DNA of 64,000 nucleotides from a virus. Positions 6,377 to 61,442 of this stretch are shown piece after piece (within the stretch, counting starts at the first letter, position 1; every line of letters begins with the position of its first letter). The position numbers and the translations under genes are program-made. A model generated the notes under the pieces. It was not told where the DNA came from. It saw only the letters and a list, made by a program, of their open reading frames with translations, and did no database searches. The DNA lies in UHGV virus genome UHGV-1558314. One strand, given 5' to 3'.

Positions 6377-6497
6377 CATTACATCATACAACATAAGTTT
6401 CATTTCAAAAACTCAATTCATATGCAAATCCCTCGTAACTGGGGGAGGGGCACAACAAGCCCTCCAAAGCAAGTCAAAGATTCTTGCAAAAGTTGAC

Positions 6498-6773
6498 GTG
6501 TATTTAATGCCAAGCGCAAACATTGACACGCTTATCAAACAAGGCTTTAAGTACATTGTGTATCGCAACACTAATACAATGTCAGCGTATCAATACACGA
6601 ATAGAATGTTTGCTGATTCGTCAACAATGGCAATGCTAACATTGACAGACGTTGAAATTGGCGACATGCATTCGTTTGGCTTGCATAACACAACAAATAA
6701 TACAACAAAGCCTATGCAAATGCGTCAAGTAACAATTACACCAACCTCCACTGTTGTAACTGTGCAATGGTGA
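6498..6773 (+). CDS. Hypothetical protein (91 aa)
   Basis: ORF between RuvC-like gene and bidirectional hairpin at 6801-6827; no recognisable motifs. Confidence 0.25.
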   Translation: MYLMPSANIDTLIKQGFKYIVYRNTNTMSAYQYTNRMFADSSTMAMLTLTDVEIGDMHSFGLHNTTNNTTKPMQMRQVTITPTSTVVTVQW

Positions 6774-21697: not shown

Positions 21698-22072
21698 TCA
21701 TCGATTGTCGCCTGACCCATGCAGTACGCCTCGTAATTTTCGAGACTGTAGTTTCTGAATGTTAAGCTGACAAATGTCAGTTAAGCTGTAGCCCAAATCA
21801 TGTGCAAGAGTTGCAGCATACCACATGACATCGCTAAGCTCTTTTGCGATTTCCTTGCGAATGTCTTCATTGTCAAAATCACCATTCTTGTCTCGAATGA
21901 CTTTTTTGACTTTGTCTGCAACTTCGCCTGCTTCACCCGTCAAGCCAAGCGTTGGATAGACAATTGCAGCTGATTTAGGATACACTGCGCTATCAAGTGC
22001 AGCAGTCTGATATTCATCAATGGTTGAAATACAAGTGTGGTCAATTACACCATGTTCATCTCGTTTAAGCAT
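21698..22072 (-). CDS. MazG-like nucleoside triphosphate pyrophosphohydrolase
   Basis: All-alpha NTP-PPase signature (LTGEAGEVADKVKK ... ELSDVMWYAATLAHDLG). Confidence 0.55.
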   Translation of the reverse strand: MLKRDEHGVIDHTCISTIDEYQTAALDSAVYPKSAAIVYPTLGLTGEAGEVADKVKKVIRDKNGDFDNEDIRKEIAKELSDVMWYAATLAHDLGYSLTDICQLNIQKLQSRKLRGVLHGSGDNR

Positions 22073-22073
22073 A

Positions 22074-22565
22074 TCATTTACGTTTTTGTTTGACTCTTAA
22101 TCGTTTTTGCATAAATGCTCTTGTAGCTTCACCAAAAGCCATCTCGTCTCGTTCGCCACCACAAAGCTTTGCAAGCTTATTGAATGTGTCTTGGTCAATC
22201 ATTGTGTACGTTGAGTTGTTGACCACATGCAATGCAAACTGAATCAGCGGTGCGCCTGGCTGCAAGCAGAACGGCTCTTTGCCCGCATTGTACACTGCAA
22301 GATGAATCTCGCCATGATAGTCTGAATCTACAAACTCACTTGTTTTGATGATAAGATGATTTCGTGAAATGCCCGACTTATTGTAGGCAATCAATGCATG
22401 ACAGGCAGGCACAAGTGCTTTGATGCCAGATGGAATTGCAATGCCCTCACCAGGTTGCAGCATTGTTTGCACAAAATCATTGGGTATGCAAAAGTCCCAT
22501 GCGCCAGATTCTGCTGTTGACTTAAAAGGACTTTCTACATTTCTGCATTTTGCAAAGAATAACAT
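22074..22565 (-). CDS. dUTPase / dCTP deaminase family protein
   Basis: VDSDYHGEIHLAVYNAG resembles trimeric dUTPase motif GxIDxDYRGE. Confidence 0.5.
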   Translation of the reverse strand: MLFFAKCRNVESPFKSTAESGAWDFCIPNDFVQTMLQPGEGIAIPSGIKALVPACHALIAYNKSGISRNHLIIKTSEFVDSDYHGEIHLAVYNAGKEPFCLQPGAPLIQFALHVVNNSTYTMIDQDTFNKLAKLCGGERDEMAFGEATRAFMQKRLRVKQKRK

Positions 22566-42763: not shown

Positions 42764-43822
42764 TTACTGCTTCAAGCCTGTGAACAGTTCATACTTGAAT
42801 GCAGGCCCTGCTGTGTAAGCCTCAAAGTAGAAGTCACCAATATTGATGCTTGCAATAGCGTCATCGACAGCTTTCTTGTAGCCTACACGTTCAATTGTCT
42901 GCTTATCGCATTTACGCCAATATGTGCTGTGCATCATAAGCGTGGGTGATGCAGCATAGTCTACTGCAAGCTGTTGTTTTGCAGTGTCAATGTGATGTTC
43001 ATAGATGTGCACATCATTGCCAGTCCAAATGAACTCTCTTGCCGCACAGTTAGTCAATGTTGCAACAATATGTGTAAGCAATGCATATGATGCGATATTG
43101 ATGGGCACACCAAGACACATGTCACAACTACGCTGAGTAAGCGCACAGTCAAGCCACATGCTTGGTACTTGAGCAGAATCAAGGCATTCTGCAGAACAAT
43201 CATGCACAAGCATGCTATCATTAGCAATCTGAATTCGTTCTTCAAGAGTCATTGGCTGACAATTGAACTGAAACAGCATATGACATGGCGGCAATGCCAT
43301 CTGAGACATTTGTGCAGGATTCCATGCAGACACGACTTTGTAGCGGCCAGTTGGATTGATGACAATGTCTTTAATGCAAGTTGCAAGTTGGTCATATCCA
43401 CTGTCATTGAAGTTGCGCCACTGATACCCATAGATAGGTCCGCAATCACCATACTCAGGCTTGCTGAATTTTGTGTTATGCAGTTCTGTGCACCAAGTTT
43501 CAAAGTCGACATCTTCACCTGGATGCAGTTTACGCCAATGACGATATGCATCCTGATGCCAGAACTTTGTAATACCAAGCGTGTCAAGCGTTTTTACATT
43601 TGTATCACCTGACATAAACCACAGAAGTTCTCCAATGACACCCTTGACAAACATTCTCTTGGATGTCAACAGTGGAAAGCCTTTACGCAAATCAAATCGC
43701 ATTGATTCTACAAACAATGACTTTGTGCGAGGCATGTTTTCACGAGCAGGCTCCTTAAATCTGCCATGTTCAATAACATTGTTAAGTACTCTCAAGTACT
43801 CAGTGTCGTGTTTGATATTCAT
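42764..43822 (-). CDS. thyA: Thymidylate synthase (ThyA family, canonical dUMP-type)
   Basis: ELLWFMSGDTN, LPPCHMLFQF (catalytic Cys), GVPINIASYALL with Asn at the base-specifying position. Confidence 0.75.
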   Translation of the reverse strand: MNIKHDTEYLRVLNNVIEHGRFKEPARENMPRTKSLFVESMRFDLRKGFPLLTSKRMFVKGVIGELLWFMSGDTNVKTLDTLGITKFWHQDAYRHWRKLHPGEDVDFETWCTELHNTKFSKPEYGDCGPIYGYQWRNFNDSGYDQLATCIKDIVINPTGRYKVVSAWNPAQMSQMALPPCHMLFQFNCQPMTLEERIQIANDSMLVHDCSAECLDSAQVPSMWLDCALTQRSCDMCLGVPINIASYALLTHIVATLTNCAAREFIWTGNDVHIYEHHIDTAKQQLAVDYAASPTLMMHSTYWRKCDKQTIERVGYKKAVDDAIASINIGDFYFEAYTAGPAFKYELFTGLKQ

Positions 43823-46687: not shown

Positions 46688-47044
46688 TTATTTGCACATA
46701 AACAATGCAGCAAACCAATTCACTGGCTTGTCAATAAGCTGCTTCCACATAGTCCAATTGTACATGCCATGTGCAAACATTGTAAGAGCAAACAGCAGCA
46801 TACACATTGATACAAGCCAATCAGCAAATGGCATATTGCCCCATCGAATGTACTCGAAAATGCCAACTTTAACAAGCTGAGCAAACAAAATGAGCATTAC
46901 AGCCATTGCAAGTCGCGTCCAGACTACATATTGCTGAGTCTTATCTACAAACTTTGCAATCAATGCTGGCACAAAGTACATAATGTATGCAAACAGCAGC
47001 AAGCAAAAGCCTGCATACAGCAGATTAGAAATAAAAGCTCCCAT
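46688..47044 (-). CDS. Multi-pass membrane protein (118 aa)
   Basis: Four hydrophobic segments. Confidence 0.4.
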   Translation of the reverse strand: MGAFISNLLYAGFCLLLFAYIMYFVPALIAKFVDKTQQYVVWTRLAMAVMLILFAQLVKVGIFEYIRWGNMPFADWLVSMCMLLFALTMFAHGMYNWTMWKQLIDKPVNWFAALFMCK

Positions 47045-47047
47045 ATT

Positions 47048-47929
47048 CTATCGTTTGAATTTGATGAAGTGTTCAGCATCGAGGCCCTCAAATACATACG
47101 GGTCAAGAGTTTCCCAGAAGTTTGAGTATGTCGTTGTCTTTGCAATGCTTGTTTGCTTTGACAAGTTCATATTTGGGTAGCCAAGCATTGCATAGTGTCG
47201 CTCATATATGTGCATTGACGTCGCATTATGCACATATGCGCCAAGCTTAAGACCAAGTTCATTTGCGACAAGTTCTTGCAACAAAGTGAATGCAAACTGG
47301 TCGTTGCAAAAGCCCCAAATGACATCATTGCTTCGCATGTATGTTGTCAAGTACAGCTTATCACCACGAACATTGAAAACAAGATTCAATGTGCATGGCA
47401 TGTCTTTGCCAGTGTAGTTTGCATATTGCGGCTCATAAATGCTAATAACTGCTCGTCTTGTGCATTCATGATTTCGCAAACGTTCAATGACATCTGCAAT
47501 CTGCTTGTGCCAAATTGCGCCATACTGTGAATTGACATTGACACCATCGTCGCTGAATTGCTTCCAACGAGGCAAATAACGTTCAATGCATTCAACTGCA
47601 GGATTGGCTGTCATGTACCACGCAAATTCTGCAGCAGCATTGAGCTTTTTCCATGGTCGTACGTCAATCTTGATTTGCCGCTGTGAAGGGTCCTGAATAA
47701 CTACAGACACATTCAGCAATTCTTTTGTTCGAGTCACTGTTTGTGCATTGTTGCCCTTTGATTCTACAAACTCACCTCTACAATGAAGTTCATACAAAAT
47801 TGAGCGAAATGCTTCTGTTGCAGTGTTTTCAATGATTGTCGTCTGTTGATAACATAAATTTGACGACAATGCTTCAGCATCATTGTACTTTATGCTGTCA
47901 TTGTCATAAGGTGAATTTTTTGTGTGCAT
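47048..47929 (-). CDS. Deoxycytidylate hydroxymethylase-like protein (ThyA-family paralog)
   Basis: RRAVISIY, PCTLNLVF (catalytic Cys), MRSNDVIWGFCNDQFAF with Asp at the base-specifying position, MHIYERH; closely resembles recalled T4 gp42 (MRSNDVVFGFRNDYAW, LHVYSRH). Confidence 0.55.
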   Translation of the reverse strand: MHTKNSPYDNDSIKYNDAEALSSNLCYQQTTIIENTATEAFRSILYELHCRGEFVESKGNNAQTVTRTKELLNVSVVIQDPSQRQIKIDVRPWKKLNAAAEFAWYMTANPAVECIERYLPRWKQFSDDGVNVNSQYGAIWHKQIADVIERLRNHECTRRAVISIYEPQYANYTGKDMPCTLNLVFNVRGDKLYLTTYMRSNDVIWGFCNDQFAFTLLQELVANELGLKLGAYVHNATSMHIYERHYAMLGYPNMNLSKQTSIAKTTTYSNFWETLDPYVFEGLDAEHFIKFKR

Positions 47930-47953
47930 ATTTTGGGATGTTTGTTTTTGTTA

Positions 47954-49048
47954 TCATACAACGACGGTATCTCGTTTGCAATCTGTTCTGTCGAATATCG
48001 AGCAACAATATGATGCAGATTGCTCTTTGATTGCAATAGCTTCGTCATTGTCAAGTGATGAAATACCATCTATGTATGCTTTTGTATTGCCAGCGATGTC
48101 ATCATTTGTTAGCAATGCTGCACGACGTTCAGTACCAAAGAAGCCAAAGCACAATTGACGCTGCAATGCTTCACGAGAAATCTTGTCATCAAACTCGGAT
48201 TTCATGTGTTGCATAAATTCGACAATATCATCAATGTCGCATTGAGTAAAGTCAATGTACAATTTATGCATGTACTTGAATCGTTTGTAGTCTGTTGCAA
48301 GAATTTCTGGGTGCACAATGAACAACGTCTTTTTGCTGTCTATTGGATTTGCAATGACTGACGCTTGAACATAATCAACAAGCACGCCAGATTCACGAAG
48401 TTGCTCAACTGTTTTGCCAAATATATGCCCAAACGTGTCATCAAACCACTTCAAGTATACTTCGTTGTCTTCATCTTTTGATGCGCCAACAATGTAAATC
48501 TCATTGACTCCAAGCGCTTTAAGACGAGTGTCAGATAGCATCGTGTTCAATTGATGCTGCACATACAGCATTGGGCTGCTATGCAAAACTGTTTTGACAA
48601 TCTCACAAGCAATGTCCATATATGCATAGTCAAGCTTTGCAGATTTTGACACATACACTGCACGTTGCTGCAATGGCTCAATTGCTGAGCATGTGGTCAC
48701 AAAGTTGCCAACACATTCTGCTACTGCAATGTCATGCAAGTCATCTGCAATGTACACAATACTTGACAAGTCATCAAATGTTTGAACAAGTTGCTGAAGC
48801 TTTGTTTTGTAATTGCAGAGCATCAATGACTTGATGTTGCAATTGCCAAGCATTGTCTTGATGAGTCGTTGACCTGCTTCAGTGCTGTCACCAGAAATGA
48901 CATGCACATCGCAGTCAAACCAGTTCAACATGTCGATTGCATGCCGAACGCCATATTGCATTTGTTTTGCGAACTTGCCAGATTCATTGAACAGCATTTC
49001 ACCTGACATAATGCCGTCAAAGTCACATACGATTTGAAGTCTGTCCAT
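47954..49048 (-). CDS. HAD-superfamily (KdsC-like) phosphatase domain protein with uncharacterised C-terminal half
   Basis: N-terminal VCDFDGIMSGE ... VHVISGDS ... IADDLHD. Confidence 0.4.
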   Translation of the reverse strand: MDRLQIVCDFDGIMSGEMLFNESGKFAKQMQYGVRHAIDMLNWFDCDVHVISGDSTEAGQRLIKTMLGNCNIKSLMLCNYKTKLQQLVQTFDDLSSIVYIADDLHDIAVAECVGNFVTTCSAIEPLQQRAVYVSKSAKLDYAYMDIACEIVKTVLHSSPMLYVQHQLNTMLSDTRLKALGVNEIYIVGASKDEDNEVYLKWFDDTFGHIFGKTVEQLRESGVLVDYVQASVIANPIDSKKTLFIVHPEILATDYKRFKYMHKLYIDFTQCDIDDIVEFMQHMKSEFDDKISREALQRQLCFGFFGTERRAALLTNDDIAGNTKAYIDGISSLDNDEAIAIKEQSASYCCSIFDRTDCKRDTVVV

Positions 49049-49412: not shown

Positions 49413-52400
49413 TTAACAAATTGATGACGTGCCATCAGTATTTGCTACAACTGTCAATGCACTATCAAACTCATCTTGTTGCAATACATGGTCAACTATG
49501 AGTGTTTTGCGAATTGCAGAAAGCTTGGTAAGCAACTGCATCAACACTTGCTGATAATTGATATTGTTGACATCATGCTCAGCGCCAACAATCTGCCCAT
49601 TGCTAAGCTTGCCACTGATTTCGTCAATGAGCAAGATGTTGCCCACTTTGTTTAAGCGTTGAGTCAAAATGAGATGCACGATTGCAAGACCTGCGAAAGT
49701 TCCTTCCATGCCAGACATTTGACTTACACTTCGAATTGACTTCGAGCCCATCAAGTCAATCATCTTCAACACATTGTTGTCATTGATGTCAAAGAACACT
49801 CGGTAGTTCAATGAATCCAGCAAATCATTGAGCTGTGCATTCAGTGATGTTGCAATTGCTGCAAAGACATATGAAACTAAGCCTCGTTTGCTTGTGCACT
49901 GCTTATATGCATTGTACACCAAGTTTGCAATGTTCCACTTTTTCGAAGCTTGCAAATCTTTCTTGAGAGCTTCAATTCGCACATTGTTTGCTGATAAGTC
50001 TGCTTGCATTGTTGCAATTTCTGCATTGATGCTTAGCAGTTTTGAGTTCGCTTCAGTTTCATGCTGCTTAGCATCATCAATGTCGACTTGCAATGCAGCA
50101 TTTGTTGTAATATGCTGCTGAGTTTGCTGTGCATGTTCAAGTGCAAATGCTGCAGCAGTCTTATCAATCTCAAGTTGTTTAAGCGCAGACTCATATGTCG
50201 CTTTCTTATCATACTCTGCTTGAGCAATTTCAAGTTCAGCATTTATTGCAGCCAGTTCTGATTCTACTGTAGATTTTGATTGCAATACATCTTGCTTTGC
50301 TTGTTCAGCTTTACGTTTGATGTCTGCAAGTTGATTTGTGATATCTGCAATTTGCATTTTGACTGCTTCGACTTCAAGCAATGTTGCTGCAGTAGCCATT
50401 GGTTGTGCAATGAATGCATCTAAGTCTCTTTGCGCATTGACTACAGTTCTCTGCAAATCATTGAGCTTTTCTGCATGCATGTCATATGCTGCTTTGTGTG
50501 CTGGATTCAGTGCAGCAATTATTGCATTTGAATCTGTAACATCTATGATTGCTGCTTGCAGTTGCTCAATTTCATACTTCAAATTGCCAATTTTGACAAC
50601 ATTCTCATTGAATTGCTCTGTCTTTTGCGCACATTCTTGACGCAACTTAGCAAGCTCAGTTGACAACCACAGCTTGTATGCTTGTCCTGTGCCAGATGTC
50701 AAGTCATTTGTACATACAGGGCATTTGTCGTTTTCAAGTTGCTTTTGCTTGTCTATAACATTGTCGATGTTTGTTTTTGCAGCAGATATTTCTGTTCTAA
50801 GTGCATTTTGAACAGTGTTGATGTCTTCAATTTGCTTTTGCAAAGCATCTATTTTTGCCCGAGTGTTTGCATTGTACGACTTGCCAAGATTTATCAGCAC
50901 AGAATCAATGTGCTGCTTTGCTGCATCATATGCAAGCTTTGATTCATCAAGCTTTGTTCTGTACAATGACTCTGCATGCGCAACTTCTTTCTGCACTTTT
51001 GCAGATAGCTCATTCTGTTTTGTAAGCAGCTCAGCATATGTATTGTGCAGCTGTGAGCCAGATGCTATGACATTTGTGTATGCTGTATTAGCTTCATTGT
51101 CAATATTAGTGAGTTGCTGCTCAATCTGTGCTTTTGCTGTTTGCAACTTAGACATATCTTGCAATGCAAGTGCAGCAATGTCAAGCTCAACTTTGTGAAT
51201 CTTTGCAATGATGCCATCGATATTTGCTGTTGCATCTTCTATAGTTAAGATGTCTGCAGGAATTTGATGTAGTTTCTTTGAGAGCTCTTCTACTTTTGCA
51301 CGAGCTTTTGTAAGCTTCGCGGACCACTCTTTTTGATTATCTTGTCGTAACTGCAAAGAGTAATTGAGTTCATTGCAAGTTGTATTGAGAGACTCAAGTT
51401 CTGCTTTTATTGCAACATCAGTCAATGCGGGCTTACTAAGGCCATCAAACAATGCAGCCTTTGCAGCATCATTAGAATTGCCAAGCTGTACAAATGTATT
51501 GATGCCAAGAGTATCAAGTAGCCAGTCATTCAATGAATTTGAGTCCATTGCAATGATTTGGTCAAGTAGTGTCTGATTGATACAAACATATCGCGACAAT
51601 TCCCAGATAGAGCCAAAGATTGCATATAGCGTGTCTTTGATTTCATGCTGCGGCACTACGTAGTCATCTGACAATCTTACAAGCTGAACAGTCTCATTGA
51701 CTGCTGACACGTTATCTCGCCATGAGCCATCTGCATTTATTCGAGAACCTCGTTTGAATTTGCGTTCAAGTGTTCGAATCAATTTGTAGTGAACATTTTG
51801 ACCTGCTACTACATGCACAAAGACACAAGAAGCTTCAAGCTTATCATATGACTCATTGTCAATCAATTTGTCATTGAAGTATGTCAAAGCGTTCTGCTTT
51901 GTTGCTGCAGAAGACTGTTCAGCGTCAATAAAGCCAGTCAGCAGCCATTTGATAAGTCTGAAGATTGTAGTCTTGCCATTGCCATTGTTGCCTCTAACTT
52001 GTGTAAGCTGTGCAAGATTGTCAAAGCTGACATCAACATCTTTCAATGCCATGAACTGATTTGCTTTAACATTTTGAATGACATATTTTGCAACTTCAGT
52101 GTCAAAAGACAATTTATCAATTTGTTCATCAATCAATGACTTGAACATGTCAACAAACTGCTGAGCATCTTCAGTAGCAACTATGGCATTGCGTTCAATG
52201 TATGCATTGACCCAGTCAAGTGCAGCGTCTTTAAGCCATTCAGCAGTTTGAACCTTTTGCAGCAAATTGTCGCCATTTGCGTCTACAGCATTGATTGAAT
52301 CAATGACAGCAGAATCATACAGAATGTCAATTGCAGCAACAACATATGAACTTACAAGATTCTGTGCAATGCGCTCAACAATACCAGACAGTTCGGGCTT

Positions 52401-53339
52401 TGTGACCTTTGACTTGATTTTGATTTTATTGATGCGGCCAGGGTTGATGAGTGCAATCTTGTCTGTTTTGACATCATTATCAATTGTGATTGTATGATAA
52501 TGCACAAGCTGCTCAAGTGGATGCCACTCTACCACAATTCGCTTGTTGTCAATATCGATGTCAAGCAAGTTGTAGCCATGTTCTGCAGTACCATGCTGTA
52601 TTGCAGTGTCATTCAACAAATAGTCGCCTTCACCAAAATCTCTGACAATTGGCGAGCCGCAATATGTTAATGTCTTATCACCAGCAACCCATATTGCATG
52701 CTTATGAATGTCACCCATTGCAACAAAGTTGCTATTAAATTGCATTGCATCTATACGACTGTCATTGTCACCACGAACAATACAATCATCAAAGTTGACA
52801 CAATTCTTTACAGGGTCATGGAACAGCTCAATGACACACATTGATGACAATGCTGCAATCTGCGATTCATCAAGTGATGCCCAAGGCGAATATGTGCCAC
52901 CAGACCACTTCTCATTTTGAGCCCATACTGCAGCAGCAAAACCAGGTGCAAGCAGTTCAACTCTTGAACTGTTGATATACTTGATTCGCTTGTCATCAAT
53001 TGCAGTTACAAGCTTGTCAATGCTATCTGTCCACTGCATTTGTGAACCATCACCAGCATCAAATGTGTTATCACGTTGCTTCAAATCATGATTGCCAGCA
53101 GTAATGACAATTTGAAGCTTGTCATTGACTTCAAGCATGCCTTTGAGCAGCTTAACAAACAGCGACTCTTCAAGTGAATTGCTATTCCAATGCTCAAACA
53201 CGTCGCCGACAATGAATACAAACTCAACTGACTTTGCTTTGTCAATTAGTTGTTTGTTGATGTGCTCATATTCTACGAAACGTCGTAAATGACCTTGTCG
53301 AACATTATATTGAATGTCTGCTATGTGAAGTGCTTTCAT
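49413..53339 (-). CDS. Fused Mre11/SbcD-like nuclease and Rad50/SbcC-like ATPase (1308 aa)
   Basis: N-terminal phosphoesterase motifs (LHIADIQ, IVGDVFEH, TAGNHD) resemble recalled T4 gp47; then Walker A GNNGNGKTT, long coiled coil, zinc hook CPVCTNDL, C-terminal LLIDEISGKL. Confidence 0.65.
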   Translation of the reverse strand: MKALHIADIQYNVRQGHLRRFVEYEHINKQLIDKAKSVEFVFIVGDVFEHWNSNSLEESLFVKLLKGMLEVNDKLQIVITAGNHDLKQRDNTFDAGDGSQMQWTDSIDKLVTAIDDKRIKYINSSRVELLAPGFAAAVWAQNEKWSGGTYSPWASLDESQIAALSSMCVIELFHDPVKNCVNFDDCIVRGDNDSRIDAMQFNSNFVAMGDIHKHAIWVAGDKTLTYCGSPIVRDFGEGDYLLNDTAIQHGTAEHGYNLLDIDIDNKRIVVEWHPLEQLVHYHTITIDNDVKTDKIALINPGRINKIKIKSKVTKPELSGIVERIAQNLVSSYVVAAIDILYDSAVIDSINAVDANGDNLLQKVQTAEWLKDAALDWVNAYIERNAIVATEDAQQFVDMFKSLIDEQIDKLSFDTEVAKYVIQNVKANQFMALKDVDVSFDNLAQLTQVRGNNGNGKTTIFRLIKWLLTGFIDAEQSSAATKQNALTYFNDKLIDNESYDKLEASCVFVHVVAGQNVHYKLIRTLERKFKRGSRINADGSWRDNVSAVNETVQLVRLSDDYVVPQHEIKDTLYAIFGSIWELSRYVCINQTLLDQIIAMDSNSLNDWLLDTLGINTFVQLGNSNDAAKAALFDGLSKPALTDVAIKAELESLNTTCNELNYSLQLRQDNQKEWSAKLTKARAKVEELSKKLHQIPADILTIEDATANIDGIIAKIHKVELDIAALALQDMSKLQTAKAQIEQQLTNIDNEANTAYTNVIASGSQLHNTYAELLTKQNELSAKVQKEVAHAESLYRTKLDESKLAYDAAKQHIDSVLINLGKSYNANTRAKIDALQKQIEDINTVQNALRTEISAAKTNIDNVIDKQKQLENDKCPVCTNDLTSGTGQAYKLWLSTELAKLRQECAQKTEQFNENVVKIGNLKYEIEQLQAAIIDVTDSNAIIAALNPAHKAAYDMHAEKLNDLQRTVVNAQRDLDAFIAQPMATAATLLEVEAVKMQIADITNQLADIKRKAEQAKQDVLQSKSTVESELAAINAELEIAQAEYDKKATYESALKQLEIDKTAAAFALEHAQQTQQHITTNAALQVDIDDAKQHETEANSKLLSINAEIATMQADLSANNVRIEALKKDLQASKKWNIANLVYNAYKQCTSKRGLVSYVFAAIATSLNAQLNDLLDSLNYRVFFDINDNNVLKMIDLMGSKSIRSVSQMSGMEGTFAGLAIVHLILTQRLNKVGNILLIDEISGKLSNGQIVGAEHDVNNINYQQVLMQLLTKLSAIRKTLIVDHVLQQDEFDSALTVVANTDGTSSIC

Positions 53340-53418: not shown

Positions 53419-53766
53419 TTATTTTGCAAGCATTTTGCTGATTGCATCTATCACAGTTTCACTGAGCAAGTAGTAGACAACGCTTATCAGCAATGATATC
53501 AGTACTGCAGCTGTGATAAATTGCAACGCATTCACAATTGCACGCACAAATGTTATCTGTGTGTTGTATGCAAGCACTATGCAGCATAGCACAATAATGA
53601 CACACCAGACTACAATTGCATATGCAGGCATCAATGAATTTGTCCATATGCAGTACAATACAGTAGTTAGCATCAAAAATGCTATTGCTCTGATGACTGA
53701 CACAATGATGTCTATGTAGAGCTTCATTACACGTAAATGAACTCTTGGCTTATGCGGTTTCATCAT
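53419..53766 (-). CDS. Small multi-pass membrane protein
   Basis: Start at ATG 53764-53766 overlapping upstream stop (ATGA); three hydrophobic helices. Confidence 0.35.
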   Translation of the reverse strand: MMKPHKPRVHLRVMKLYIDIIVSVIRAIAFLMLTTVLYCIWTNSLMPAYAIVVWCVIIVLCCIVLAYNTQITFVRAIVNALQFITAAVLISLLISVVYYLLSETVIDAISKMLAK

Positions 53767-54995
53767 GACTTTATGTACAATTCTGCAAGTTGTCTGGTGT
53801 ACAATCGTGGATTGTGATATGCTTTCCAATATGCAGTAGACTTTATTGCAGCAAGAATCTCATCATAATGTTTGACTGCTTTTGCTACAACTTCATCAAG
53901 TACATGCAAATCTTCTACACTAACAAGCAGCCATTTTTCTACAATGTCAATGAATTCTTGATTGCAATTAAAGCCATATTTGTAGTTGCAAGTGTCAAGT
54001 ACAAGTGGGATGCAGTCATTTGTCAGTGCTTCAAAAAATCTACGAAGACTGAAACAATTCTCATCATATGATGGAATGCTTAATGTAAACTTGGCAGTCT
54101 TGATGAGTTGCAAATACTCTTCGTATGGAATCAGAGGACCATTGTGCTTCCACTGATTGTTATGTCGTCTTGTTGTGTACTTGAACAAAAACTTTGAACT
54201 GTCAAGCTCACAAAGATGGTCCATGCGTAAAATGTAGTTATAGCGGTCTCTTCTATCAGGCCAACTGTCAGTCATTGCAAACACAAAGTCTCTTTGCTTG
54301 TCACATTTTGCTGACATACCTCTATGCTGACACATGCAGTACCAATATTGCTGCGATGGACTGAACTCGAACTTTGAGTGATGCTCACTGCCATCTTTGC
54401 ATTGTTGAACGTAAATATTGTCAGGCACAAAGTGAAAGTAGAAATGTCGAATTTGCAAGCCGTCAATGTAGTCAAGCTTATGCTGCAATGGGTCCTCACA
54501 GAAATTGTAACACTGAATGCGTTTTGCTGCAGCATACTCAGCAACTATGAATGTGCACACCCATTGCAATGCGATGTCTTCACTCTTCAAAAAGTCAACA
54601 AGTGGCTCATTTGGATGCGCTTTGCATTCATTGAACATTTTGTACCACTTGCATTGCTCCATGTCATACTTGGAGACTGTATTGCCATTAAAAAATGACA
54701 CAGTATCAATTTTGAATGCCTCAAGTTGTTTATGCACAATGTCGATTGCTTGTGCATATGTGACAGTCTCATCAGACATTATTTGTGCAAACTTGATTGG
54801 ATGCGCATGCAAATTTGCAATTGTGTCTGCTGACATTTTGCGCTGTGTATGATAATCGACATACAAAAACTGACACTTGTCTGTAAGCAATTCAAGCATT
54901 GCTACAGATTTCCATCGAATTGCTTGAAAGAAATTGAAGTGCGCAGTTTGAAAAATGAGATGCGTAGGCTTGTCAGAATGAGTCAAAGTTTGCAT
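53763..54995 (-). CDS. Glycosyltransferase-like protein (GT-B-type C-terminal motif), paralog B'
   Basis: IPSYDENCFSLRRFFEALTNDCIPLV resembles GT-B donor-binding motif; paralogous to 58026..59582 (shared EDPLQHKL, PSQQYWY). Track start is TTG; ATG at 54993-54995 used. Confidence 0.45.
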   Translation of the reverse strand: MQTLTHSDKPTHLIFQTAHFNFFQAIRWKSVAMLELLTDKCQFLYVDYHTQRKMSADTIANLHAHPIKFAQIMSDETVTYAQAIDIVHKQLEAFKIDTVSFFNGNTVSKYDMEQCKWYKMFNECKAHPNEPLVDFLKSEDIALQWVCTFIVAEYAAAKRIQCYNFCEDPLQHKLDYIDGLQIRHFYFHFVPDNIYVQQCKDGSEHHSKFEFSPSQQYWYCMCQHRGMSAKCDKQRDFVFAMTDSWPDRRDRYNYILRMDHLCELDSSKFLFKYTTRRHNNQWKHNGPLIPYEEYLQLIKTAKFTLSIPSYDENCFSLRRFFEALTNDCIPLVLDTCNYKYGFNCNQEFIDIVEKWLLVSVEDLHVLDEVVAKAVKHYDEILAAIKSTAYWKAYHNPRLYTRQLAELYIKS

Positions 54996-56158
54996 GGACA
55001 AATGTCGCAGTTATGTTGATGTTTGTGTTTATTTATGAAGTCATATGTCACTGCAAAAAAGTGCTTTGCAATGTCATATCGAGTTTTCAAATATGCTGCT
55101 TGTCGTTCACAAAATGCTGCATAAATATCTGGGTGTTGTTTGAATGCTGCAATGCGTTGCTGTACTTGTTCTGCAGAATGCACATATGACACTTTGCTCA
55201 AATATACATCATCTGCAAATAATCGTTTGTCTTTGTCAACTGCGCAATCAACAAAAGTTGCAATTCGTGCAACAATTGCTTCACCGACACGATTTGGTAT
55301 TAGCCCATATTGCTCATATTGCTGTTCGCCGATAGCAATGTGTGCTGCTGCATATGACATTGCATATGGCACACTATAAAATGGCACACTAAAATCAAAT
55401 GAACAATTTGACTGCAGCAATTGTGTTTGTGCATCAGACAATCTACTTGTCAAGTTGCCTGTATATTTGTGCTCACCAAGAAAACTTGAGCGACAGCCTG
55501 AATCTACATAGTATCGAATGACTTTGTTTATGCGACTGTCAGATAGCATATGCCAATCTCTTGTAGCATATATCAAGTCTACTGTTTTTGCGCCAATATG
55601 ACGAGGCTCTATCGCAACATTGCTGTATGTTGGCAGCATAAACAATGGCAGCCATTTGACATTGTTGAACACTGAATGCTCATTTGACAAATTCATGCAC
55701 TGGCTAAGTTCAAGTACTGGCTCATCATACACGCCATGTAGCTCAACTCTGCCTGCATGCACAAAGTTGACACGCTTAAATGGAAATCGCATATCAGTGC
55801 AAACTGTCATTCTTGCTGCAATAGACATTCGCCACATAGCATGCAGCTTAACAACTGCTTCTGCTTGAGGTCGAGGCAACATATTTAGCAAATCAATCCA
55901 GCCGCCCCACAAAATCCAAACATCATTTGAACAGATGTTGAATTGCAAACTCAATATGTCTTCTACTGTTGTAGCAATAATGTCATGCCCATTGATGCTT
56001 GCAAGGTGTTTTCGTTGATTTGCAATAATAATGACTTGACTGAATGGAGACTCTGGAAATGACACAAGCGCTTTTGCAAACAACACGGGTTCTTGCGACA
56101 CCAAGTTGTTTGAGTATGGGTCGATTATGCAATCAAGCTTGTGTATGAAGAGTCTCAT
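54983..56158 (-). CDS. Hypothetical protein (391 aa), paralog A' of 59579..60745
   Basis: Shared N-terminus MRLFIHKLD vs MSKLFILKFD and TDMRFPF vs TDLRFDF; sits immediately upstream of a GT-like gene. Confidence 0.4.
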   Translation of the reverse strand: MRLFIHKLDCIIDPYSNNLVSQEPVLFAKALVSFPESPFSQVIIIANQRKHLASINGHDIIATTVEDILSLQFNICSNDVWILWGGWIDLLNMLPRPQAEAVVKLHAMWRMSIAARMTVCTDMRFPFKRVNFVHAGRVELHGVYDEPVLELSQCMNLSNEHSVFNNVKWLPLFMLPTYSNVAIEPRHIGAKTVDLIYATRDWHMLSDSRINKVIRYYVDSGCRSSFLGEHKYTGNLTSRLSDAQTQLLQSNCSFDFSVPFYSVPYAMSYAAAHIAIGEQQYEQYGLIPNRVGEAIVARIATFVDCAVDKDKRLFADDVYLSKVSYVHSAEQVQQRIAAFKQHPDIYAAFCERQAAYLKTRYDIAKHFFAVTYDFINKHKHQHNCDICPCKL

Positions 56159-56889
56159 TTTGCAGATGATTCAAAAAATTTGTAGACATCGCAGTTAGCA
56201 ATGTGGTCATTCCAAGCATCTTCAGAGTCTGCAACAAAGCCACAATGACAGCGTTTTGGCTGCCAAACTGGTTCAACTACTGCAGGCATTGCTTCTTCAA
56301 TAGTGTTTGCAGGTTCATTATCTGCTGGCAATACTTCAACGTCTTCAACTTGTGCTGCATCTTGTTGTGCACGCTGCTCAATGACATTGCCCTCAAAGTC
56401 AAACTGAATGCCAGCTTGTTCTGCTTTTGTACGATTATTACGAGCTACGAACAAATACGCAAAGATGAATTCGACAAGCGCTATGGCAAGTGACTTCAGT
56501 GCATTGACAAGAAGCATGATGCCTGTTGATAAATGGCCGTCAAAGCTCAAAAACACGAACACACATGTAAAGCATGACATAAACACTGCAATCAGTGGAA
56601 TGTTCTTGTATTTTGGCAACAAATCAGAGTTGACTGATGTAAGCAACACAACGAATTGATAACCTATTGCAAGCCAATAGTCGCCAAACACTGCATAGAT
56701 ATGCGTAGTGATGCCAATAAGAAATGTGATAGTCACAATCATAATGAGCAACACACTTGTCAGAAAGTCTGCAATAGAATTGCTGAGCTTGTCATACCAG
56801 TGTTTGTTGACAATTGACGTGTTGGCTACGCGCACTTTACTAAGTGCATCTATGCCGCTTTTGATATTTGATTGTGCTTTCATACACAT
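56155..56889 (-). CDS. Multi-pass membrane protein with C-terminal Cys/His-rich soluble domain (244 aa)
   Basis: Several hydrophobic helices; C-terminal CHCGF...HIANCD; ATGA overlap with next gene. Confidence 0.4.
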   Translation of the reverse strand: MCMKAQSNIKSGIDALSKVRVANTSIVNKHWYDKLSNSIADFLTSVLLIMIVTITFLIGITTHIYAVFGDYWLAIGYQFVVLLTSVNSDLLPKYKNIPLIAVFMSCFTCVFVFLSFDGHLSTGIMLLVNALKSLAIALVEFIFAYLFVARNNRTKAEQAGIQFDFEGNVIEQRAQQDAAQVEDVEVLPADNEPANTIEEAMPAVVEPVWQPKRCHCGFVADSEDAWNDHIANCDVYKFFESSAK

Positions 56890-57195: not shown

Positions 57196-57411
57196 TCATT
57201 TTGCACAGTCTGATGCAATTAAATCTTTGTCAAAGCATTCATCTATAATGTCTTCAATAAGATACGCTTCGACATTGTTAAGCTTCAAGATATCTACGAG
57301 TTTTGCTTTGATATCGCAAGCTAATGCAGATTCGACTGTATGCAATATGACTGATGATACGACATGCTTGTCTGTCATCATTTGTAATTGCTGTGGTGTT
57401 ACTCTACTCAT
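57196..57411 (-). CDS. Small acidic hypothetical protein (71 aa)
   Basis: ATG start overlaps Tmk-like stop (ATGA). Confidence 0.3.
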   Translation of the reverse strand: MSRVTPQQLQMMTDKHVVSSVILHTVESALACDIKAKLVDILKLNNVEAYLIEDIIDECFDKDLIASDCAK

Positions 57412-57980
57412 GCGCCAAGTTCAGCTAAGCATTTCAACACATTGTCTTGCAGACTTGCATTGTTGTCAATTTCGACAATATGCAATGGTGAGTTCTTTCG
57501 CCACTCATCATATGCAGCAATCATTTCATTGCGTTTGCTGACATCAATGTTGACATCACCGCAAAAATTATCGACAAAATCTGGCACAACATCACGCTTG
57601 CATAAGAACACTACGTGCGGCAATGTTGCAAGCTTCTTTTCATATGCTTCAAAGAATGCTTGATGCTTATCAGTGTGCAGCTCTTTGTAAAGCGTTGTGT
57701 TGAAGATTTGATGCGTGATGAATGAACGGTCACACAAAAACGTTGCTTTGCCAAAGCCTTGAGAGTCATTTCCAATGAACTCTAAGAAGAAGCGCCAATC
57801 ATAAAAGAACGCTTCATTGAGGTCCCAAGGTTCGGGCATTGGGTCATCACCTGACTCATGCTGCTGCCACCAAGAACGAGATGTTCGTTTGCAATTGATA
57901 AACCATGGGCGCCACTTCATCAATTCATTGATGAGTGTTGTTTTGCCTGAAGCTTCTACACCTTCAAATATCGCTATCAT
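57408..57980 (-). CDS. Thymidylate-kinase-like P-loop nucleoside monophosphate kinase
   Basis: P-loop FEGVEASGKTT and CDRSFITHQ (DR-Y/H-like). Confidence 0.55.
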   Translation of the reverse strand: MIAIFEGVEASGKTTLINELMKWRPWFINCKRTSRSWWQQHESGDDPMPEPWDLNEAFFYDWRFFLEFIGNDSQGFGKATFLCDRSFITHQIFNTTLYKELHTDKHQAFFEAYEKKLATLPHVVFLCKRDVVPDFVDNFCGDVNIDVSKRNEMIAAYDEWRKNSPLHIVEIDNNASLQDNVLKCLAELGA

Positions 57981-58025: not shown

Positions 58026-59582
58026 TCATTGCACTTCTACGAATGGCTCTTTCAACACAAAGCTGTCACCATTGCAACATGCGGCTGAGCCATCGTCTGC
58101 ATCAAGTGCGCATGACATATCAGACTTGCAGAACTTGCAATATGAACATGACCATGCATGACTCATAAAGTTGTTTGCTTCACAAATTACACAGCGCTCA
58201 TGTGAAAGTGTATTGTCGCAATTGTCACAAGACTTCTTGATTGGCACATCTTTATTGATATATGCAAGATGCAATGCAATATCATACACAAAGTCACCCG
58301 TATATTGCTGAATGAAATCAGTGTGCCACAACTCTTTTAACAATTGTGTATGTCTATATGGCTGAACAATGTCTTCAAGATGCTGCAAGTCATCATCGCT
58401 AACCATGAGCTTCTTAATGACAAACTGTTTGAACTGCGGCCATCTGTCAAACATATAGAGTTTGCATGAGTTGTGCACAAGTGGAACACAGCCAAGCACA
58501 ATGCTTTCACAGAATCTACGCAAACTAAAACAGTTTGCATCATATGACGGCACAATCAATGTGAATCTGCTATGCTTGATGAGTTCAAGGTATGTGTCAT
58601 ATGGCAGTAGCTTGTCTGACAATGGCTGCTGTTGCTTGTCCCTGCTGAAAAATCTGAACACAATGCCTTTATCAATTGCATCTTGATTGTGCAGATGCAT
58701 GAGTTTGTTGATGAGTTCTGTGCGTTCAGTTTTGTCTCGCCAAGTATTCGTCAATGCAAATGCAAAATTCAGTCGCTTGTCATCAAACGTCGCTTCAATG
58801 TCATCCCAAGTTTTGTCATGCAAATACCAGTATTGCTGTGATGGGCACCATCCATAATATGCAATAGCGTCTTGTTCTGCTGTAACGTCATACACATATG
58901 CAGAATTGTATTCAAGGCCAAGCCCTTTGACATTGTTGCAGTCATGAAAGTACCAATGCTGCACTTTGAATATCTTTGATGCACTGAATGCGCTTTCATA
59001 TGGCCCTGAATAGCGATAGTCAATGTAATTGAGCTTGTGCTGCAATGGGTCTTCGACAAAGTTGTTTATGACTGTGCCTTGTTGTTTGCCATTAGTCTTG
59101 CGAGCATTCAATGCAATATTGTACTGCATAATGACTGACAGCATCTCATACACTACATACATGAGTGCTTTGTAGACTGAGCCTGCTGCGTCAATTAGCG
59201 GCAAATCACGTTTGACTGATGCAGTACCAAATGTCTTGCAATATGCAGAAAATGTATCAAGTTCTGCCTGTTGAAATGAATTGCATGCGCCATTGAATAT
59301 GTTGAATGTTGCAATGTAGCTCATATTACAAGATGTCATTGACATATCAAGACGCTTCATAATGTCAGCAATGCGACATTGAGCAAAATCTGACACATCA
59401 ACATATTTGACATGATGACCTGATGCAGTCAAGCCAACTGCGACTTCTTTCATTTGTGGCACAAAGCCTACTACAATGAACAAGTCATCTTTGTTTGCTC
59501 GTTCAAACATTGCTGCACTTTTCCAAGTCAATGAATTGAAAAAGTCTATGTAGCCAGTCTGTGTGATGATATGTGTTCTCAT
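58026..59582 (-). CDS. Glycosyltransferase-like protein (GT-B-type C-terminal motif), paralog B
   Basis: VPSYDANCFSLRRFCESIVLGCVPLV; C-terminal Cys-rich extension (CDNCDN...CVICE...CSYCKFC). Confidence 0.45.
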   Translation of the reverse strand: MRTHIITQTGYIDFFNSLTWKSAAMFERANKDDLFIVVGFVPQMKEVAVGLTASGHHVKYVDVSDFAQCRIADIMKRLDMSMTSCNMSYIATFNIFNGACNSFQQAELDTFSAYCKTFGTASVKRDLPLIDAAGSVYKALMYVVYEMLSVIMQYNIALNARKTNGKQQGTVINNFVEDPLQHKLNYIDYRYSGPYESAFSASKIFKVQHWYFHDCNNVKGLGLEYNSAYVYDVTAEQDAIAYYGWCPSQQYWYLHDKTWDDIEATFDDKRLNFAFALTNTWRDKTERTELINKLMHLHNQDAIDKGIVFRFFSRDKQQQPLSDKLLPYDTYLELIKHSRFTLIVPSYDANCFSLRRFCESIVLGCVPLVHNSCKLYMFDRWPQFKQFVIKKLMVSDDDLQHLEDIVQPYRHTQLLKELWHTDFIQQYTGDFVYDIALHLAYINKDVPIKKSCDNCDNTLSHERCVICEANNFMSHAWSCSYCKFCKSDMSCALDADDGSAACCNGDSFVLKEPFVEVQ

Positions 59583-60745
59583 GATTTGAATGTTTGTTCA
59601 AGAATTGTGTAACACTGCACAATCATTACTGCAAGAGCTTTTTGCTGTGCTTGTTTGCAATCATCAAAATTTGTGGGCGCAGTGCGTACGCGTGTTTTGC
59701 TATTAAGTGTCGCAAATGTCGCGTAGTCATCGAAGCCTATAATGTCAGCAAATAGGGCAATTGGCTTATAATCTACAAGTATGTTGCAGCAATTTGCAAG
59801 TACGCCTTCAACCCATCGATTTGGCAGCAAGTCTGCTTGCACATACAATGAATCACCAACTACAAGATTGTATGCCGACTGTGACATTACACGCGGCATT
59901 GCATCGTATGTGACTTTGTATTTAAGTGTAAAGTTTGGTGCTGCTGATTTAATCGCAGACAAAATTGTGTCATCAAGATATGATGTTATGAGACACGTGT
60001 CGCACATATGTATGACAAATTGTTCAATCACACTTCTACGATACTCGTCAAGATATGTGAAACCTGCACAACTTGCACAGCATGCATATTGCTGCTTTAT
60101 GTCAGCAAAGCTACGCACATGAGCTTCAATTGCATTTTGCATCGTTACTTGTAGTTTAAGCAATCTTGGCTCTTTAATGTATTGAAGCTTCAATGCATTG
60201 ACTGCTGCAATGATTTGCAATGGGGCAAACACACATTGAGACTCATCAAGCCAAGCGTATTTGAGATTTTTGTGCTGGCATAGATGCGTAATGTTGTCTT
60301 TTTGTGATTCTAAGTACTCTTTGTAATTGTGCAATCGCTTTGTCAATGTGCATTCTTTATCAAAGTCGAATCGCAAATCAGTTGTTAGTGTAAATTTGCG
60401 AGCGTTTGACAAACACCATGTTTTGAATGCATTCCACAGAACATCTTGCTGAAATTCTGAGCAATGTTCAAGAGCAGCCTTTGAACCTTGCCAGAATATT
60501 GCGCAATCATCTGATTTTGCGCACTTCAGCATATCTTGCCATGCATGTATGTTATTGATAATATGCACATTATCATACACAAGCTCATCAAGTATTGCAT
60601 GCTTGTTCTCAGGGTCGCCAAACACATATACAGCATCAAACATTGTCTGCACAAAACCTGCAAATGCAATAGGTTCTGTATGCTTAAGATGCTGTACGTC
60701 TGAACGCACGCATGTGTCAAATTTCAAAATGAATAGTTTGCTCAT
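59579..60745 (-). CDS. Hypothetical protein (388 aa), paralog A
   Basis: ATGA overlap with downstream GT-like gene; paralogous to 54983..56158. Confidence 0.4.
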   Translation of the reverse strand: MSKLFILKFDTCVRSDVQHLKHTEPIAFAGFVQTMFDAVYVFGDPENKHAILDELVYDNVHIINNIHAWQDMLKCAKSDDCAIFWQGSKAALEHCSEFQQDVLWNAFKTWCLSNARKFTLTTDLRFDFDKECTLTKRLHNYKEYLESQKDNITHLCQHKNLKYAWLDESQCVFAPLQIIAAVNALKLQYIKEPRLLKLQVTMQNAIEAHVRSFADIKQQYACCASCAGFTYLDEYRRSVIEQFVIHMCDTCLITSYLDDTILSAIKSAAPNFTLKYKVTYDAMPRVMSQSAYNLVVGDSLYVQADLLPNRWVEGVLANCCNILVDYKPIALFADIIGFDDYATFATLNSKTRVRTAPTNFDDCKQAQQKALAVMIVQCYTILEQTFKS

Positions 60746-61442
60746 ATACTTTGCAATTATCTATTACATGTTGATATTGTACTTCATCTATGATGTGATT
60801 TGCAATGACACCATATGAGGCGTCATACATTGGCATCTTCTCATATGACAATGCTGCGTCAAGATTGCATATCACATAATTGCAATGCACAATGTCATCT
60901 ACATTGTCACTAACTGCTACGATATTGACACACTTTGCAAGAAATGCATCATCAAAGTCTACTTGATTGCATGCAACCTCATAATCTGCTGCGCTTCTTG
61001 GGTACCAATATAACTCAATGCCAGCACTACTAAGTAGTCGCAAGCCATCTATGTGATGATACAAGTCAACAAAATGCACTTGCTTAACGCCTGCTTGCAA
61101 AATAAGCTTTGCGCAATCAATGCATGGACTGTATGTTACATACAGCACTGCGTCATTTGCGGTCGCATTGCCATATTTGCACAGCTTCATCAATGCGTTT
61201 GATTCTGCATGCAAAACTTCTTTGTTGGTTTTGATACCTGCCGATGTTGCATGCTCACAACAATTTGACATGCCAGTTGGCATGCCATTGTAGCCATCTG
61301 AAATTATGCAACCATTTTTTACAAGCAATGCGCCAACTTTTGCTCGCTGAGCATATGAATTTAATGACCAAAGCTCAGCCATTTTAAGATATATGAGATT
61401 TCGTTGAAACTGCTTTGTTTCAGACCAAGTTAGCCATTTCAT
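60717..61442 (-). CDS. dCMP deaminase (zinc-dependent cytidine/deoxycytidylate deaminase family)
   Basis: HAESNAL ... SPCIDCAKLI zinc-binding motifs. Confidence 0.7.
   Translation of the reverse strand: MKWLTWSETKQFQRNLIYLKMAELWSLNSYAQRAKVGALLVKNGCIISDGYNGMPTGMSNCCEHATSAGIKTNKEVLHAESNALMKLCKYGNATANDAVLYVTYSPCIDCAKLILQAGVKQVHFVDLYHHIDGLRLLSSAGIELYWYPRSAADYEVACNQVDFDDAFLAKCVNIVAVSDNVDDIVHCNYVICNLDAALSYEKMPMYDASYGVIANHIIDEVQYQHVIDNCKVYEQTIHFEI
60766..60785 (-). promoter_or_regulatory. Promoter box embedded in 3' end of dCMP deaminase gene
   Basis: acatgttgatattgtacttc about 25 nt upstream of ATG 60745. Confidence 0.35.

Follow-up and report, generated by a model that had tools for sequence, protein, structure and literature searches.

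Two ThyA-family genes in the window

The window analysed here is a stretch of 64,000 nucleotides from the virus genome UHGV-1558314. Its genes form a phage block for replication and nucleotide metabolism that is encoded almost entirely on one strand: 64 of the 69 open reading frames (ORFs), including every gene of the window named below, are on the minus strand. Two of these ORFs encode members of the ThyA family: a canonical thymidylate synthase (TS) at 42764..43822 (352 aa), and a paralog at 47048..47929 (293 aa, ATG start) that we predict to be a 5-hydroxymethyl-dCMP (5hm-dCMP) synthase, i.e., a dCMP hydroxymethylase. The ThyA paralog is the subject of this work. An original prediction for this locus had proposed the same ORF, which is real, and the strings it quoted, 'DMPCTLN' and 'YMRSNDVIWGFCNDQFAF', are present in the translation.

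The ThyA paralog matches Pfam PF00303 with E=3.7e-24 (85.8 bits against a cutoff of 24.3), which places it in the ThyA superfamily, and PHROG 5131 'thymidylate synthase' with E=6e-49. It falls below the cutoff of all eight NCBIfam TS equivalog models, the best score being 79.3 bits against a cutoff of 174.55. Residues were mapped with HMMER against PDB sequences and with MAFFT using anchored references. C179 (codon 47393-47395) aligns with the nucleophile C146 of E. coli TS (EcTS), and D210 (47300-47302) with E. coli N177, L. casei N229, T4 gp42 D179 and MilA D186; an earlier alignment, in which the catalytic Cys was kept and Asp replaced Asn, was thus correct. The catalytic and ligand-binding set of the family is retained: C179, R199, R158 and R159 (EcTS Arg166, Arg126 and Arg127), S200 (Ser167; codon 47330-47332), Y136 (Tyr94; 47522-47524), E101 (Glu58), H240 (His207) and Y242 (Tyr209). 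The residues of a canonical TS are replaced at three positions, with Asp210 for Asn177, Asp176 for Leu143 and Thr180 for His147. Asp at EcTS position 177 is invariant in an alignment of 40 family sequences and in all 120 homologs retrieved from a database of 5.8 billion proteins, and is therefore not a chance substitution.

The gene at 42764..43822 has C180, Leu at EcTS position 143, His at 147 and, in 'GVPINIASYALL', N242 at position 177, in line with its earlier description as a canonical ThyA. It matches Pfam with E=4.3e-76 and passes the NCBIfam model TIGR03284 (240.6 bits against a cutoff of 108.35). The protein is unusually long, with one insertion of ~25 aa after the W80 region and another of ~35 aa after the strand bearing the catalytic Cys, and carries Tyr where E. 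coli TS has the phosphate-binding Arg127.

The active site of the ThyA paralog

Knowledge of ThyA homologs with Asp177 has widened since 2025-26, and four outcomes are now known for them: 5hm-dCMP (T4 gp42), 5-hydroxy-dCMP, 5-methyl-dCMP and hydroxymethyl-CMP (hm-CMP). The homologs RB69 gp48, DLP3 gp80, RL38J1 gp216 and HY126 AfhB produce 5-hydroxy-dCMP via flavin and O2, and such synthases are diagnosed by D169N, i.e., Asn at E. coli position 169 (PMC13326640). Enzymes of the Xp12/PaMx74 type and five metaviromic Asp177 enzymes make 5-methyl-dCMP (bioRxiv 2024.12.05.627091). MilA prefers CMP, which it converts to hm-CMP; this ribo-preference depends on Ala176 and Lys133', and CMP activity is lost in the A176S/K133R double mutant (PMC5175136). 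Because several products are known, Asp177 shows only that cytosine is the substrate base. The assignment as a dCMP hydroxymethylase is thus supported, but not the earlier use of Asp177 as a sufficient hallmark, and further determinants are needed. Two are known from T4 dCMP hydroxymethylase (dCH, gp42). A study of its ternary complex identified Asp145, three residues before the Cys, and found the D145N variant to be inactive (PMC6400193), and Ser94, which precedes the catalytic-base Tyr by two residues, is a hydroxymethylase determinant that activates water with the acid at position 143 (PMC6400193, PMC13326640). We refer to these two positions as C-3 and Y-2.

The anchored references were E. 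coli thyA, T4 gp42, RB69 gp48, RL38J1 gp216, an SP8 dUMP hydroxymethylase homolog and PaMx74 gp52, the last standing in for the 5-methyl-dCMP class, and were aligned with L-INS-i. At EcTS positions 21, 58, 80, 82, 94, 126, 127, 146, 147, 165-169, 173, 176, 177, 207 and 209 the ThyA paralog is identical to T4 gp42 (19/19), reading K, E, W, Q, Y, R, R, C, T, M, R, S, N, D, G, N, D, H and Y, with D three residues before C146. This Asp at C-3, D176 in 'KDMPC' (codon 47402-47404), corresponds to T4 D145 and EcTS L143 and is invariant in the family, and the Ser at Y-2, S134 of S134-Q-Y136 (47528-47530), corresponds to T4 S94 and belongs to an SxY motif present in 120 of the 120 homologs. The folate-site residues D202 (47324-47326; EcTS D169, T4 D171), W122 (W80, T4 W82) and E101 (T4 E60) are also kept. 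In the 40-sequence alignment D176, C179, T180, S134, Y136, D202 and D210 are all invariant; across the 120 homologs the Asp residues at C-3, 169 and 177 are found together in every sequence, as are T147 and G173, and W80 is found in 119. In sequence, then, the C-3 Asp, the Y-2 Ser, Asp169, Trp80 and the pair Ser167/Arg126 all point to hydroxymethylation of dCMP as the predicted reaction.

Fold and relatives

An AlphaFold2 (AF2) model of the ThyA paralog, built from the 40-sequence alignment, has a predicted local distance difference test score (pLDDT) of 90.5 and a predicted template modelling score (pTM) of 0.88. When the model was compared with the PDB using Foldseek, MilA ranked first (E=6e-20, TM ~0.69), followed by TSs, AfhB (E ~4e-16) and T4 dCH (6.6e-15, root mean square deviation 3.0 Å), and hundreds of ThyA-family matches at E<1e-14 confirm the ThyA fold of the predicted structure. 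The fold does not separate the product classes, as MilA, TSs, AfhB and T4 dCH all match at E values of 1e-15 to 1e-20. MilA is also the best PDB match by sequence (1.5e-22, ~29% identity over residues 59-244), and a BLAST comparison with the SP8 dUMP hydroxymethylase (QPX71701.1) gives 29% identity and E=1e-28. The nearest characterised relatives, MilA, the SP8-type enzyme and gp42, are all hydroxymethylases. At the C terminus, an extension ('TTYSNFW...') is conserved in the closest homologs and is predicted to be well folded (pLDDT up to 98).

In neighbor-joining (NJ) trees, the only kind computed (200 bootstraps), the ThyA paralog falls in a large uncharacterised metagenomic clade with BF486P2_00032 of a Bacteroides phage and MA9V2_146 of a Chryseobacterium phage. 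This clade comprises Asp177 homologs of PHROG 5131/3676 from metaviromes and from phages of Bacteroidota and Firmicutes; its members from isolated phages are 37-44% identical to the ThyA paralog and bear the identical signature. Most members are short (~215 aa) and do not have the C-terminal extension, with the active site unchanged. SP8 lies inside or beside the clade (33% bootstrap), MilA is nearby and T4 gp42 is farther away. Once SP8 is included, the set of Asp177 sequences is not cleanly monophyletic, and deep nodes are poorly supported. Database labels of the relatives (dCMP hydroxymethylase, dUMP hydroxymethylase, TS) were rejected as evidence because a single family carries inconsistent automated labels.

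Bacteroides phage BF486P2 (53 kb, Bacteroides fragilis) has two Asp177 ThyA-family genes ~2 kb apart, at 3165-3926 and 5998-6678 of its genome. Both have Asp at C-3, 169 and 177, but one carries Leu, not Glu, at the position of EcTS E58. The annotation of the 12.6-kb region examined in BF486P2 includes no canonical Asn177 TS.

Glucosyltransferase homologs and the HAD-fusion neighbor

The strongest contextual support, absent from the original prediction, comes from two homologs of T4 DNA β-glucosyltransferase (β-GT), an enzyme that acts on 5-hydroxymethylcytosine (hmC) in DNA. The first, at 54983..56158 (391 aa), matches PHROG 7922 (1.4e-7) and T4 β-GT itself (BLASTP, 4.5e-6), and the second, a paralog at 59579..60745 (388 aa), is 24% identical to the first (E=6e-13). 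A family profile that includes the second protein aligns with T4 β-GT over 220 columns (hhalign, 94.9%, E=4.4e-8), and T4 β-GT was its sole match in the whole PDB (5.1e-8). Two motifs are invariant in the family, 'TDxRxPF' ('TDMRFPF' in the protein at 54983..56158) and 'NRVxE' ('NRVGE'). The former aligns with the segment of T4 β-GT holding Asp100, the proposed catalytic base of that enzyme. Just five homologs of this family were found in the database of 5.8 billion proteins. The AF2 model of the protein at 54983..56158, from a seven-sequence alignment, was poor (pLDDT 56), and we therefore relied on hhalign and hmmsearch instead.

A possible GT-B-type glycosyltransferase, tentatively assigned, is encoded at 53763..54995 (410 aa) and overlaps the upstream β-GT-like gene by 13 nt. 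It has sub-threshold Pfam matches to Exostosin_GT47 (1.5e-4) and Glyco_trans_1_2 (1.7e-4), and its homologs in the related contigs L009 and L014 have the same faint GT47 match. Its paralog at 58026..59582 (518 aa, with a Cys-rich C-terminal tail; 30% identity, E=3e-46) matches Exostosin_GT47 at 9.7e-6, also below the cutoff, and is given the same tentative assignment. The C-terminal GT47/GT1 matches of the pair show 'SLRRFxEAL..C.PLV'. A profile of this family found no match in the PDB, sub-threshold GT47/GT-B matches being the only ones obtained. Since each β-GT-like gene is directly followed and overlapped by one of these paralogs, the arrangement resembles a two-gene cassette that has been duplicated.

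Directly upstream of the ThyA paralog, across a gap of 24 nt, lies a gene at 47954..49048 that encodes a KdsC/YrbI-type HAD phosphatase domain (residues ~6-150) fused to a C-terminal domain of ~210 aa. The DxD, Lys and DD motifs of the HAD domain are invariant; the NCBIfam KdsC subfamily model matches at 1.9e-9, below its cutoff, and a profile search of the PDB found KdsC at 2.3e-7. The C-terminal half has no Pfam, PHROG, NCBIfam or convincing PDB match, even when a profile is used. The HAD-fusion is rare, with only two homologs in the 5.8-billion-protein database, and it occupies the same position directly upstream of the ThyA paralog in the related contigs L009, L012, L013 and L014. Its HAD domain is 32% identical to MA9V2_142, encoded near the ThyA-like gene of Chryseobacterium phage MA9V-2. 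Other proteins listed for Chryseobacterium phage MA9V in the MA9V-1 paper are a KpsF/GutQ isomerase and a GlmU-like nucleotidyltransferase.

Assignment of the product

We consider it likely that the ThyA paralog is a folate-dependent dCMP hydroxymethylase and the functional equivalent of T4 gp42. The likeness to T4 covers the enzyme, which has the same fold (PDB 1b49/1b5d/6a9a) and the same active-site residues, and also the logic of the genome, with a separate TS, a dCMP deaminase, an NTP pyrophosphatase and β-glucosyltransferase homologs. A dCMP hydroxymethylase beside a canonical TS in a T-even-style pathway had been proposed before, and this proposal is supported by the active-site identity with T4 gp42, its conservation, the synteny of the locus and the β-GT homologs. 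The analysis shows the family membership and the first three of these observations; the substrate, the product and each step of the pathway given below are inferred.

Several observations weigh against this assignment. (i) The C-3 residue of PaMx74 gp52 is Asn, which is polar rather than bulky and hydrophobic, so the position-143 rule is not clean. (ii) The residue rules for positions 143, 169 and 177 are empirical, being correlations drawn from a limited number of enzymes. (iii) Overall identity to T4 gp42 is only 27% over 186 aa (E=1e-14), and a group of the clade plus T4 gp42 appeared in 1% of the 200 NJ bootstraps, so that the tree does not place the two together. (iv) Relative to T4 gp42 (246 aa) the protein is extended by ~30 aa at the N terminus and ~45 aa at the C terminus; it lacks the 'GMS' insertion that T4 gp42 has before the catalytic Cys. 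(v) The clade to which the protein belongs is uncharacterised. (vi) The dCTPase and kinase roles of neighboring genes are candidate roles, and the kinase assignment is weak.

Other products were weighed against 5hm-dCMP, and each is given a low probability because it fails a tested defining feature or has no positive evidence. A dCMP methyltransferase of the Xp12/PaMx74 type, yielding 5-methyl-dCMP and 5-methylcytosine in the phage DNA, is unlikely. Like the ThyA paralog as we read it, PaMx74 gp52 is a dCMP-acting ThyA-family enzyme with Asp177, a residue compatible with methylation: an N229D substitution turns TS into a dCMP methylase (cited literature), the five metaviromic Asp177 homologs were shown to make the 5-methyl product, and a gene of the dCMP deaminase family is present in the window. 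However, the two proteins are only 26% identical, and the PaMx74 pattern (P147, L165, S168, Y176, no acid at C-3) is replaced here by T, M, N, N and D, with Asn at C-3 and Ala at Y-2 in PaMx74. The C-3 Asp and Y-2 Ser of the ThyA paralog form the water-activating pair of hydroxymethylases, and PaMx74 lies outside all hydroxymethylases in both NJ trees that include it. In addition, phages of the 5-methylcytosine type have been proposed to obtain dTTP by deamination of 5-methyl-dCTP, dispensing with a second TS, whereas a canonical ThyA is kept here, and homologs of T4 β-GT need a hydroxyl acceptor.

It is similarly improbable that dCMP and methylene-tetrahydrofolate yield some other C5 product, for example by capture of the methylene by a nucleophile other than water, with possible involvement of the C-terminal extension or the HAD-fusion. 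An uncharacterised clade, a conserved and apparently folded extension that T4 gp42 lacks, strictly conserved pairing with a rare HAD-fusion gene and the unexpected chemistry recently found in the ThyA superfamily (PMC13326640) would all be compatible with such a product. Against it, the first-shell residues are all as in T4 gp42, the short clade members keep the same active site without the extension, and the β-GT homologs imply a hydroxymethyl acceptor.

A flavin-dependent 5-hydroxy-dCMP synthase, in which case nearby glycosyltransferases would put sugars directly on 5-hydroxycytosine via an ether link, is very unlikely. These synthases (PDB 9iqc/9iqu) share with the ThyA paralog the fold, Asp177, an acidic C-3 residue, T147 and M165. 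For RL38J1 gp216, too, the best structural match is MilA (PMC13326640), and AfhB is a good Foldseek match to our model. Their genes, too, cluster with DNA glycosyltransferases and a HAD phosphatase, as in the arabinosyl-5-hydroxycytosine clusters, and several glycosyltransferase-like genes and a HAD phosphatase lie near the ThyA paralog. The diagnostic Asn169 is not found here, however: the ThyA paralog has Asp202, invariant in its family, where RB69 gp48 and RL38J1 gp216 have Asn in the same alignment, and it has W80, G173 and N168 where those enzymes have V/A, V and Q. The sequence match to AfhB/RB69 gp48 (9iqc) is weak, at 9e-11 compared with 1.5e-22 for MilA. RB69 and RL38J1 form a group of their own (81% bootstrap), apart from the ThyA paralog, and the HAD-fusion has no BLAST similarity to the RB69 arabinose-pathway proteins gp50-55, among them gp51-53.

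A dUMP-specific enzyme that tolerates Asp, either a second TS or an SPO1-type dUMP hydroxymethylase, is extremely improbable. The original prediction had named clustering with dUMP hydroxymethylases as an observation that would speak against it, and by overall sequence such clustering is partly seen: SP8 is closer than gp42, being the closest characterised phage enzyme and lying in or next to the clade. The SP8/SPO1 enzymes also have the hydroxymethylase Asp at C-3 in common with the ThyA paralog, and some database relatives are labelled 'deoxyuridylate hydroxymethyltransferase', although such labels are automated and mutually inconsistent. What keeps the assignment is residue 177, an experimentally established base switch, which is Asp in the ThyA paralog, in its 120 homologs and in all 124 clade members aligned and Asn in SP8. 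SP8 further has R21, M80, N147, N165, A176 and Ala at Y-2, where the ThyA paralog has K, W, T, M, N and Ser, as in T4 gp42. Because the nearer SP8 differs at ~7 active-site positions, including the base switch, and the more distant gp42 at none, the active-site pattern tracks function, not ancestry. Proximity to SP8 was thus judged not decisive against a dCMP hydroxymethylase. A second TS is further opposed by the failure of all NCBIfam TS equivalog cutoffs and by the bona fide ThyA 3 kb away.

Finally, a CMP hydroxymethylase like MilA/BcmA, whose product would go to RNA modification or to a nucleoside metabolite instead of DNA, has hardly any probability: MilA (Streptomyces rimofaciens, PDB 5jnh/5b6d) is the best PDB match by both sequence and fold and shares Asp at EcTS positions 177 and 143 and hydroxymethylase chemistry on a cytosine nucleotide, but it is a bacterial enzyme of secondary metabolism, and its ribose-tolerance pair Ala176/Lys133' (EcTS positions 167 and 126) is Ser200/Arg158 here, as in deoxy-specific TS and dCH, in a gene that sits in a phage DNA-replication and dNTP-metabolism module.

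Nucleotide-metabolism partners and a proposed pathway

The partners named in the original prediction are present, with one qualification. A MazG-like all-alpha NTP pyrophosphatase, a candidate dCTPase, is encoded at 21698..22072 (Pfam MazG 8.1e-9, PHROG 229 1.4e-35; no PDB match with phmmer and no NCBIfam match), and a protein of the trimeric dUTPase/dCTP-deaminase superfamily at 22074..22565 (Pfam dUTPase 3.5e-10, DCD 1.3e-6; NCBIfam dut 1e-12, below cutoff). The latter is 37% identical to the dut protein of Bacteroides phage BF486P2, and neither of the two is similar to T4 gp56. A dCMP deaminase of the ComEB/cd type with a C-terminal extension of ~90 aa lies at 60717..61442 (Pfam 5.5e-21, PHROG 174 5.3e-44), so that a separate TS and dCMP deaminase for the supply of dTMP are both at hand. 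For the claimed dNMP kinase, a gene recognisable at the P-loop level exists at 57408..57980, and its assignment as a candidate kinase of dNMPs or their hydroxymethylated forms is weaker than had been claimed: Pfam matches (E=0.002-0.03) are all below cutoff, the PHROG thymidylate kinase match (9e-6) covers residues 1-30, NCBIfam P-loop matches are sub-threshold, and phmmer found no PDB match. The protein is 35% identical (E=3e-27) to MA9V2_145, the product of a kinase gene directly upstream of the ThyA-like gene in MA9V-2. The MetaGPA study found enrichment of ThyA homologs with Asp177 (and a residue other than His at 147), and of MazG/PRA-PH and dCMP deaminase domains along with them, on viral contigs with modified cytosine (PMC8670742); a ThyA homolog, MazG and dCMP deaminase in one window constitute an association of this type.

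In the pathway that we propose, the MazG-like pyrophosphatase, the dUTPase-family protein or both would convert dCTP to dCMP, from which the ThyA paralog would form 5hm-dCMP. By homology with T4 dCH, C179 would attack C6 of dCMP and D210 would read and protonate N3/N4 of the cytosine. The methylene of 5,10-methylene-tetrahydrofolate, held by D202, W122 and E101, would then be transferred to C5, with Y136 abstracting H5. In place of hydride transfer, a water molecule positioned by D176 and S134 would hydrate the exocyclic methylene to give 5hm-dCMP and tetrahydrofolate. The P-loop kinase and the host nucleoside diphosphate kinase would raise 5hm-dCMP to 5hm-dCTP for incorporation by the phage family-B DNA polymerase (PolB), while the dCMP deaminase and the ThyA at 42764..43822 would provide dTMP in parallel, like T4 cd and td. 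After replication, hmC in the DNA is probably glycosylated by the two T4 β-GT-like enzymes, perhaps also by the two GT-B-like paralogs.

More speculatively, 5hm-dCMP may be the anchor of an undescribed hypermodification, a glycan of multiple or unusual sugars assembled by the two β-GT and GT-B-like cassettes with the HAD-fusion helping to make the sugar donor; we regard this as possible but rather doubtful.

If the assignment is correct, (glycosylated) 5-hydroxymethylcytosine takes the place of cytosine in the phage DNA, a known anti-restriction strategy. DNA of this kind would withstand many restriction enzymes and a number of CRISPR effectors, would bias sequencing and bisulfite or enzymatic methylation assays, and would affect the recovery of such phages from viromes. 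The co-occurrence of TS and dCMP hydroxymethylase in one phage is the classic T4 arrangement and unsurprising by itself. The ThyA paralog represents a very large Asp177 clade, with 120 retrieved homologs that have the T4 gp42 active site, and its product would bear on the 143/169/177 code outside Straboviridae. Candidate new DNA glycosyltransferases, of possible use as hmC-labelling reagents, are the two β-GT homologs and the proteins paired with them; should the glycan reading hold, glycosylated-hmC DNA would extend beyond the T-even phages and new DNA glycosyltransferases would be added.

Genomic setting

A megablast search of the 42-50 kb region against 50,697 phage records gave no match, and the phage thus has no close sequenced relative. 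Its PolB is closest to those of the Chryseobacterium jumbo phages MA9V-1/2 (36%), followed by Tenacibaculum jumbo phages, and not to those of Straboviridae. The locus would represent the T4 td/42 arrangement in a new lineage, one for which jumbo phages of Bacteroidota are the nearest relatives sequenced. Synteny of the module is kept in relatives with 39-98% identity, and a nearly identical contig derives from a metagenome sample with the label 'ZEEV15', presumably a human-gut cohort. No tRNAs were found in the window. The 40 nt before the start of the ThyA paralog (47930-47969) are A-rich, ending in '...AACAAAAACAAACATCCCAAAAT' directly before the ATG, and contain no Shine-Dalgarno-like purine run; taken with the affinity of PolB and the ThyA paralog to phages of Bacteroidota, this leader is compatible with a host from that phylum.

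Genes for small predicted membrane proteins lie among those for nucleotide metabolism and glycosyltransferases, at 46688-47044, 53419-53766 and 56155-56889. The first of these (118 aa) begins 3 nt after the ThyA paralog and has the same position in contigs L009, L012 and L013. An ORF of 1308 aa at 49413-53339 combines a metallophosphoesterase N terminus (Mre11/SbcD-like) with an SMC/SbcC/Rad50-like ATPase and coiled coil (PHROG 35725, E=7e-113); it is conserved across the syntenic contigs as well as in phages MA9V and PAU.

PolB is apparently split into an N-terminal part of 501 aa at 24184-25689 and a C-terminal part of 430 aa at 19370-20662, ~3.5 kb apart. Six ORFs separate the two parts, among them the genes for the MazG-like and dUTPase-like proteins and one ORF of 399 aa at 22976-24175 with repeated 'xRYG/KYG' motifs. 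By eye, this 399-aa ORF and one of 316 aa at 14786-15736 have similar N termini and repeated '(A/E)RYG' units, and it shares the C-terminal motif 'KHW..K..EH......QEM.D.G...VYDCGH' with an 82-aa ORF at 14480-14728. These three ORFs may be mobile, homing-endonuclease-like elements spread across the structural and replication modules.

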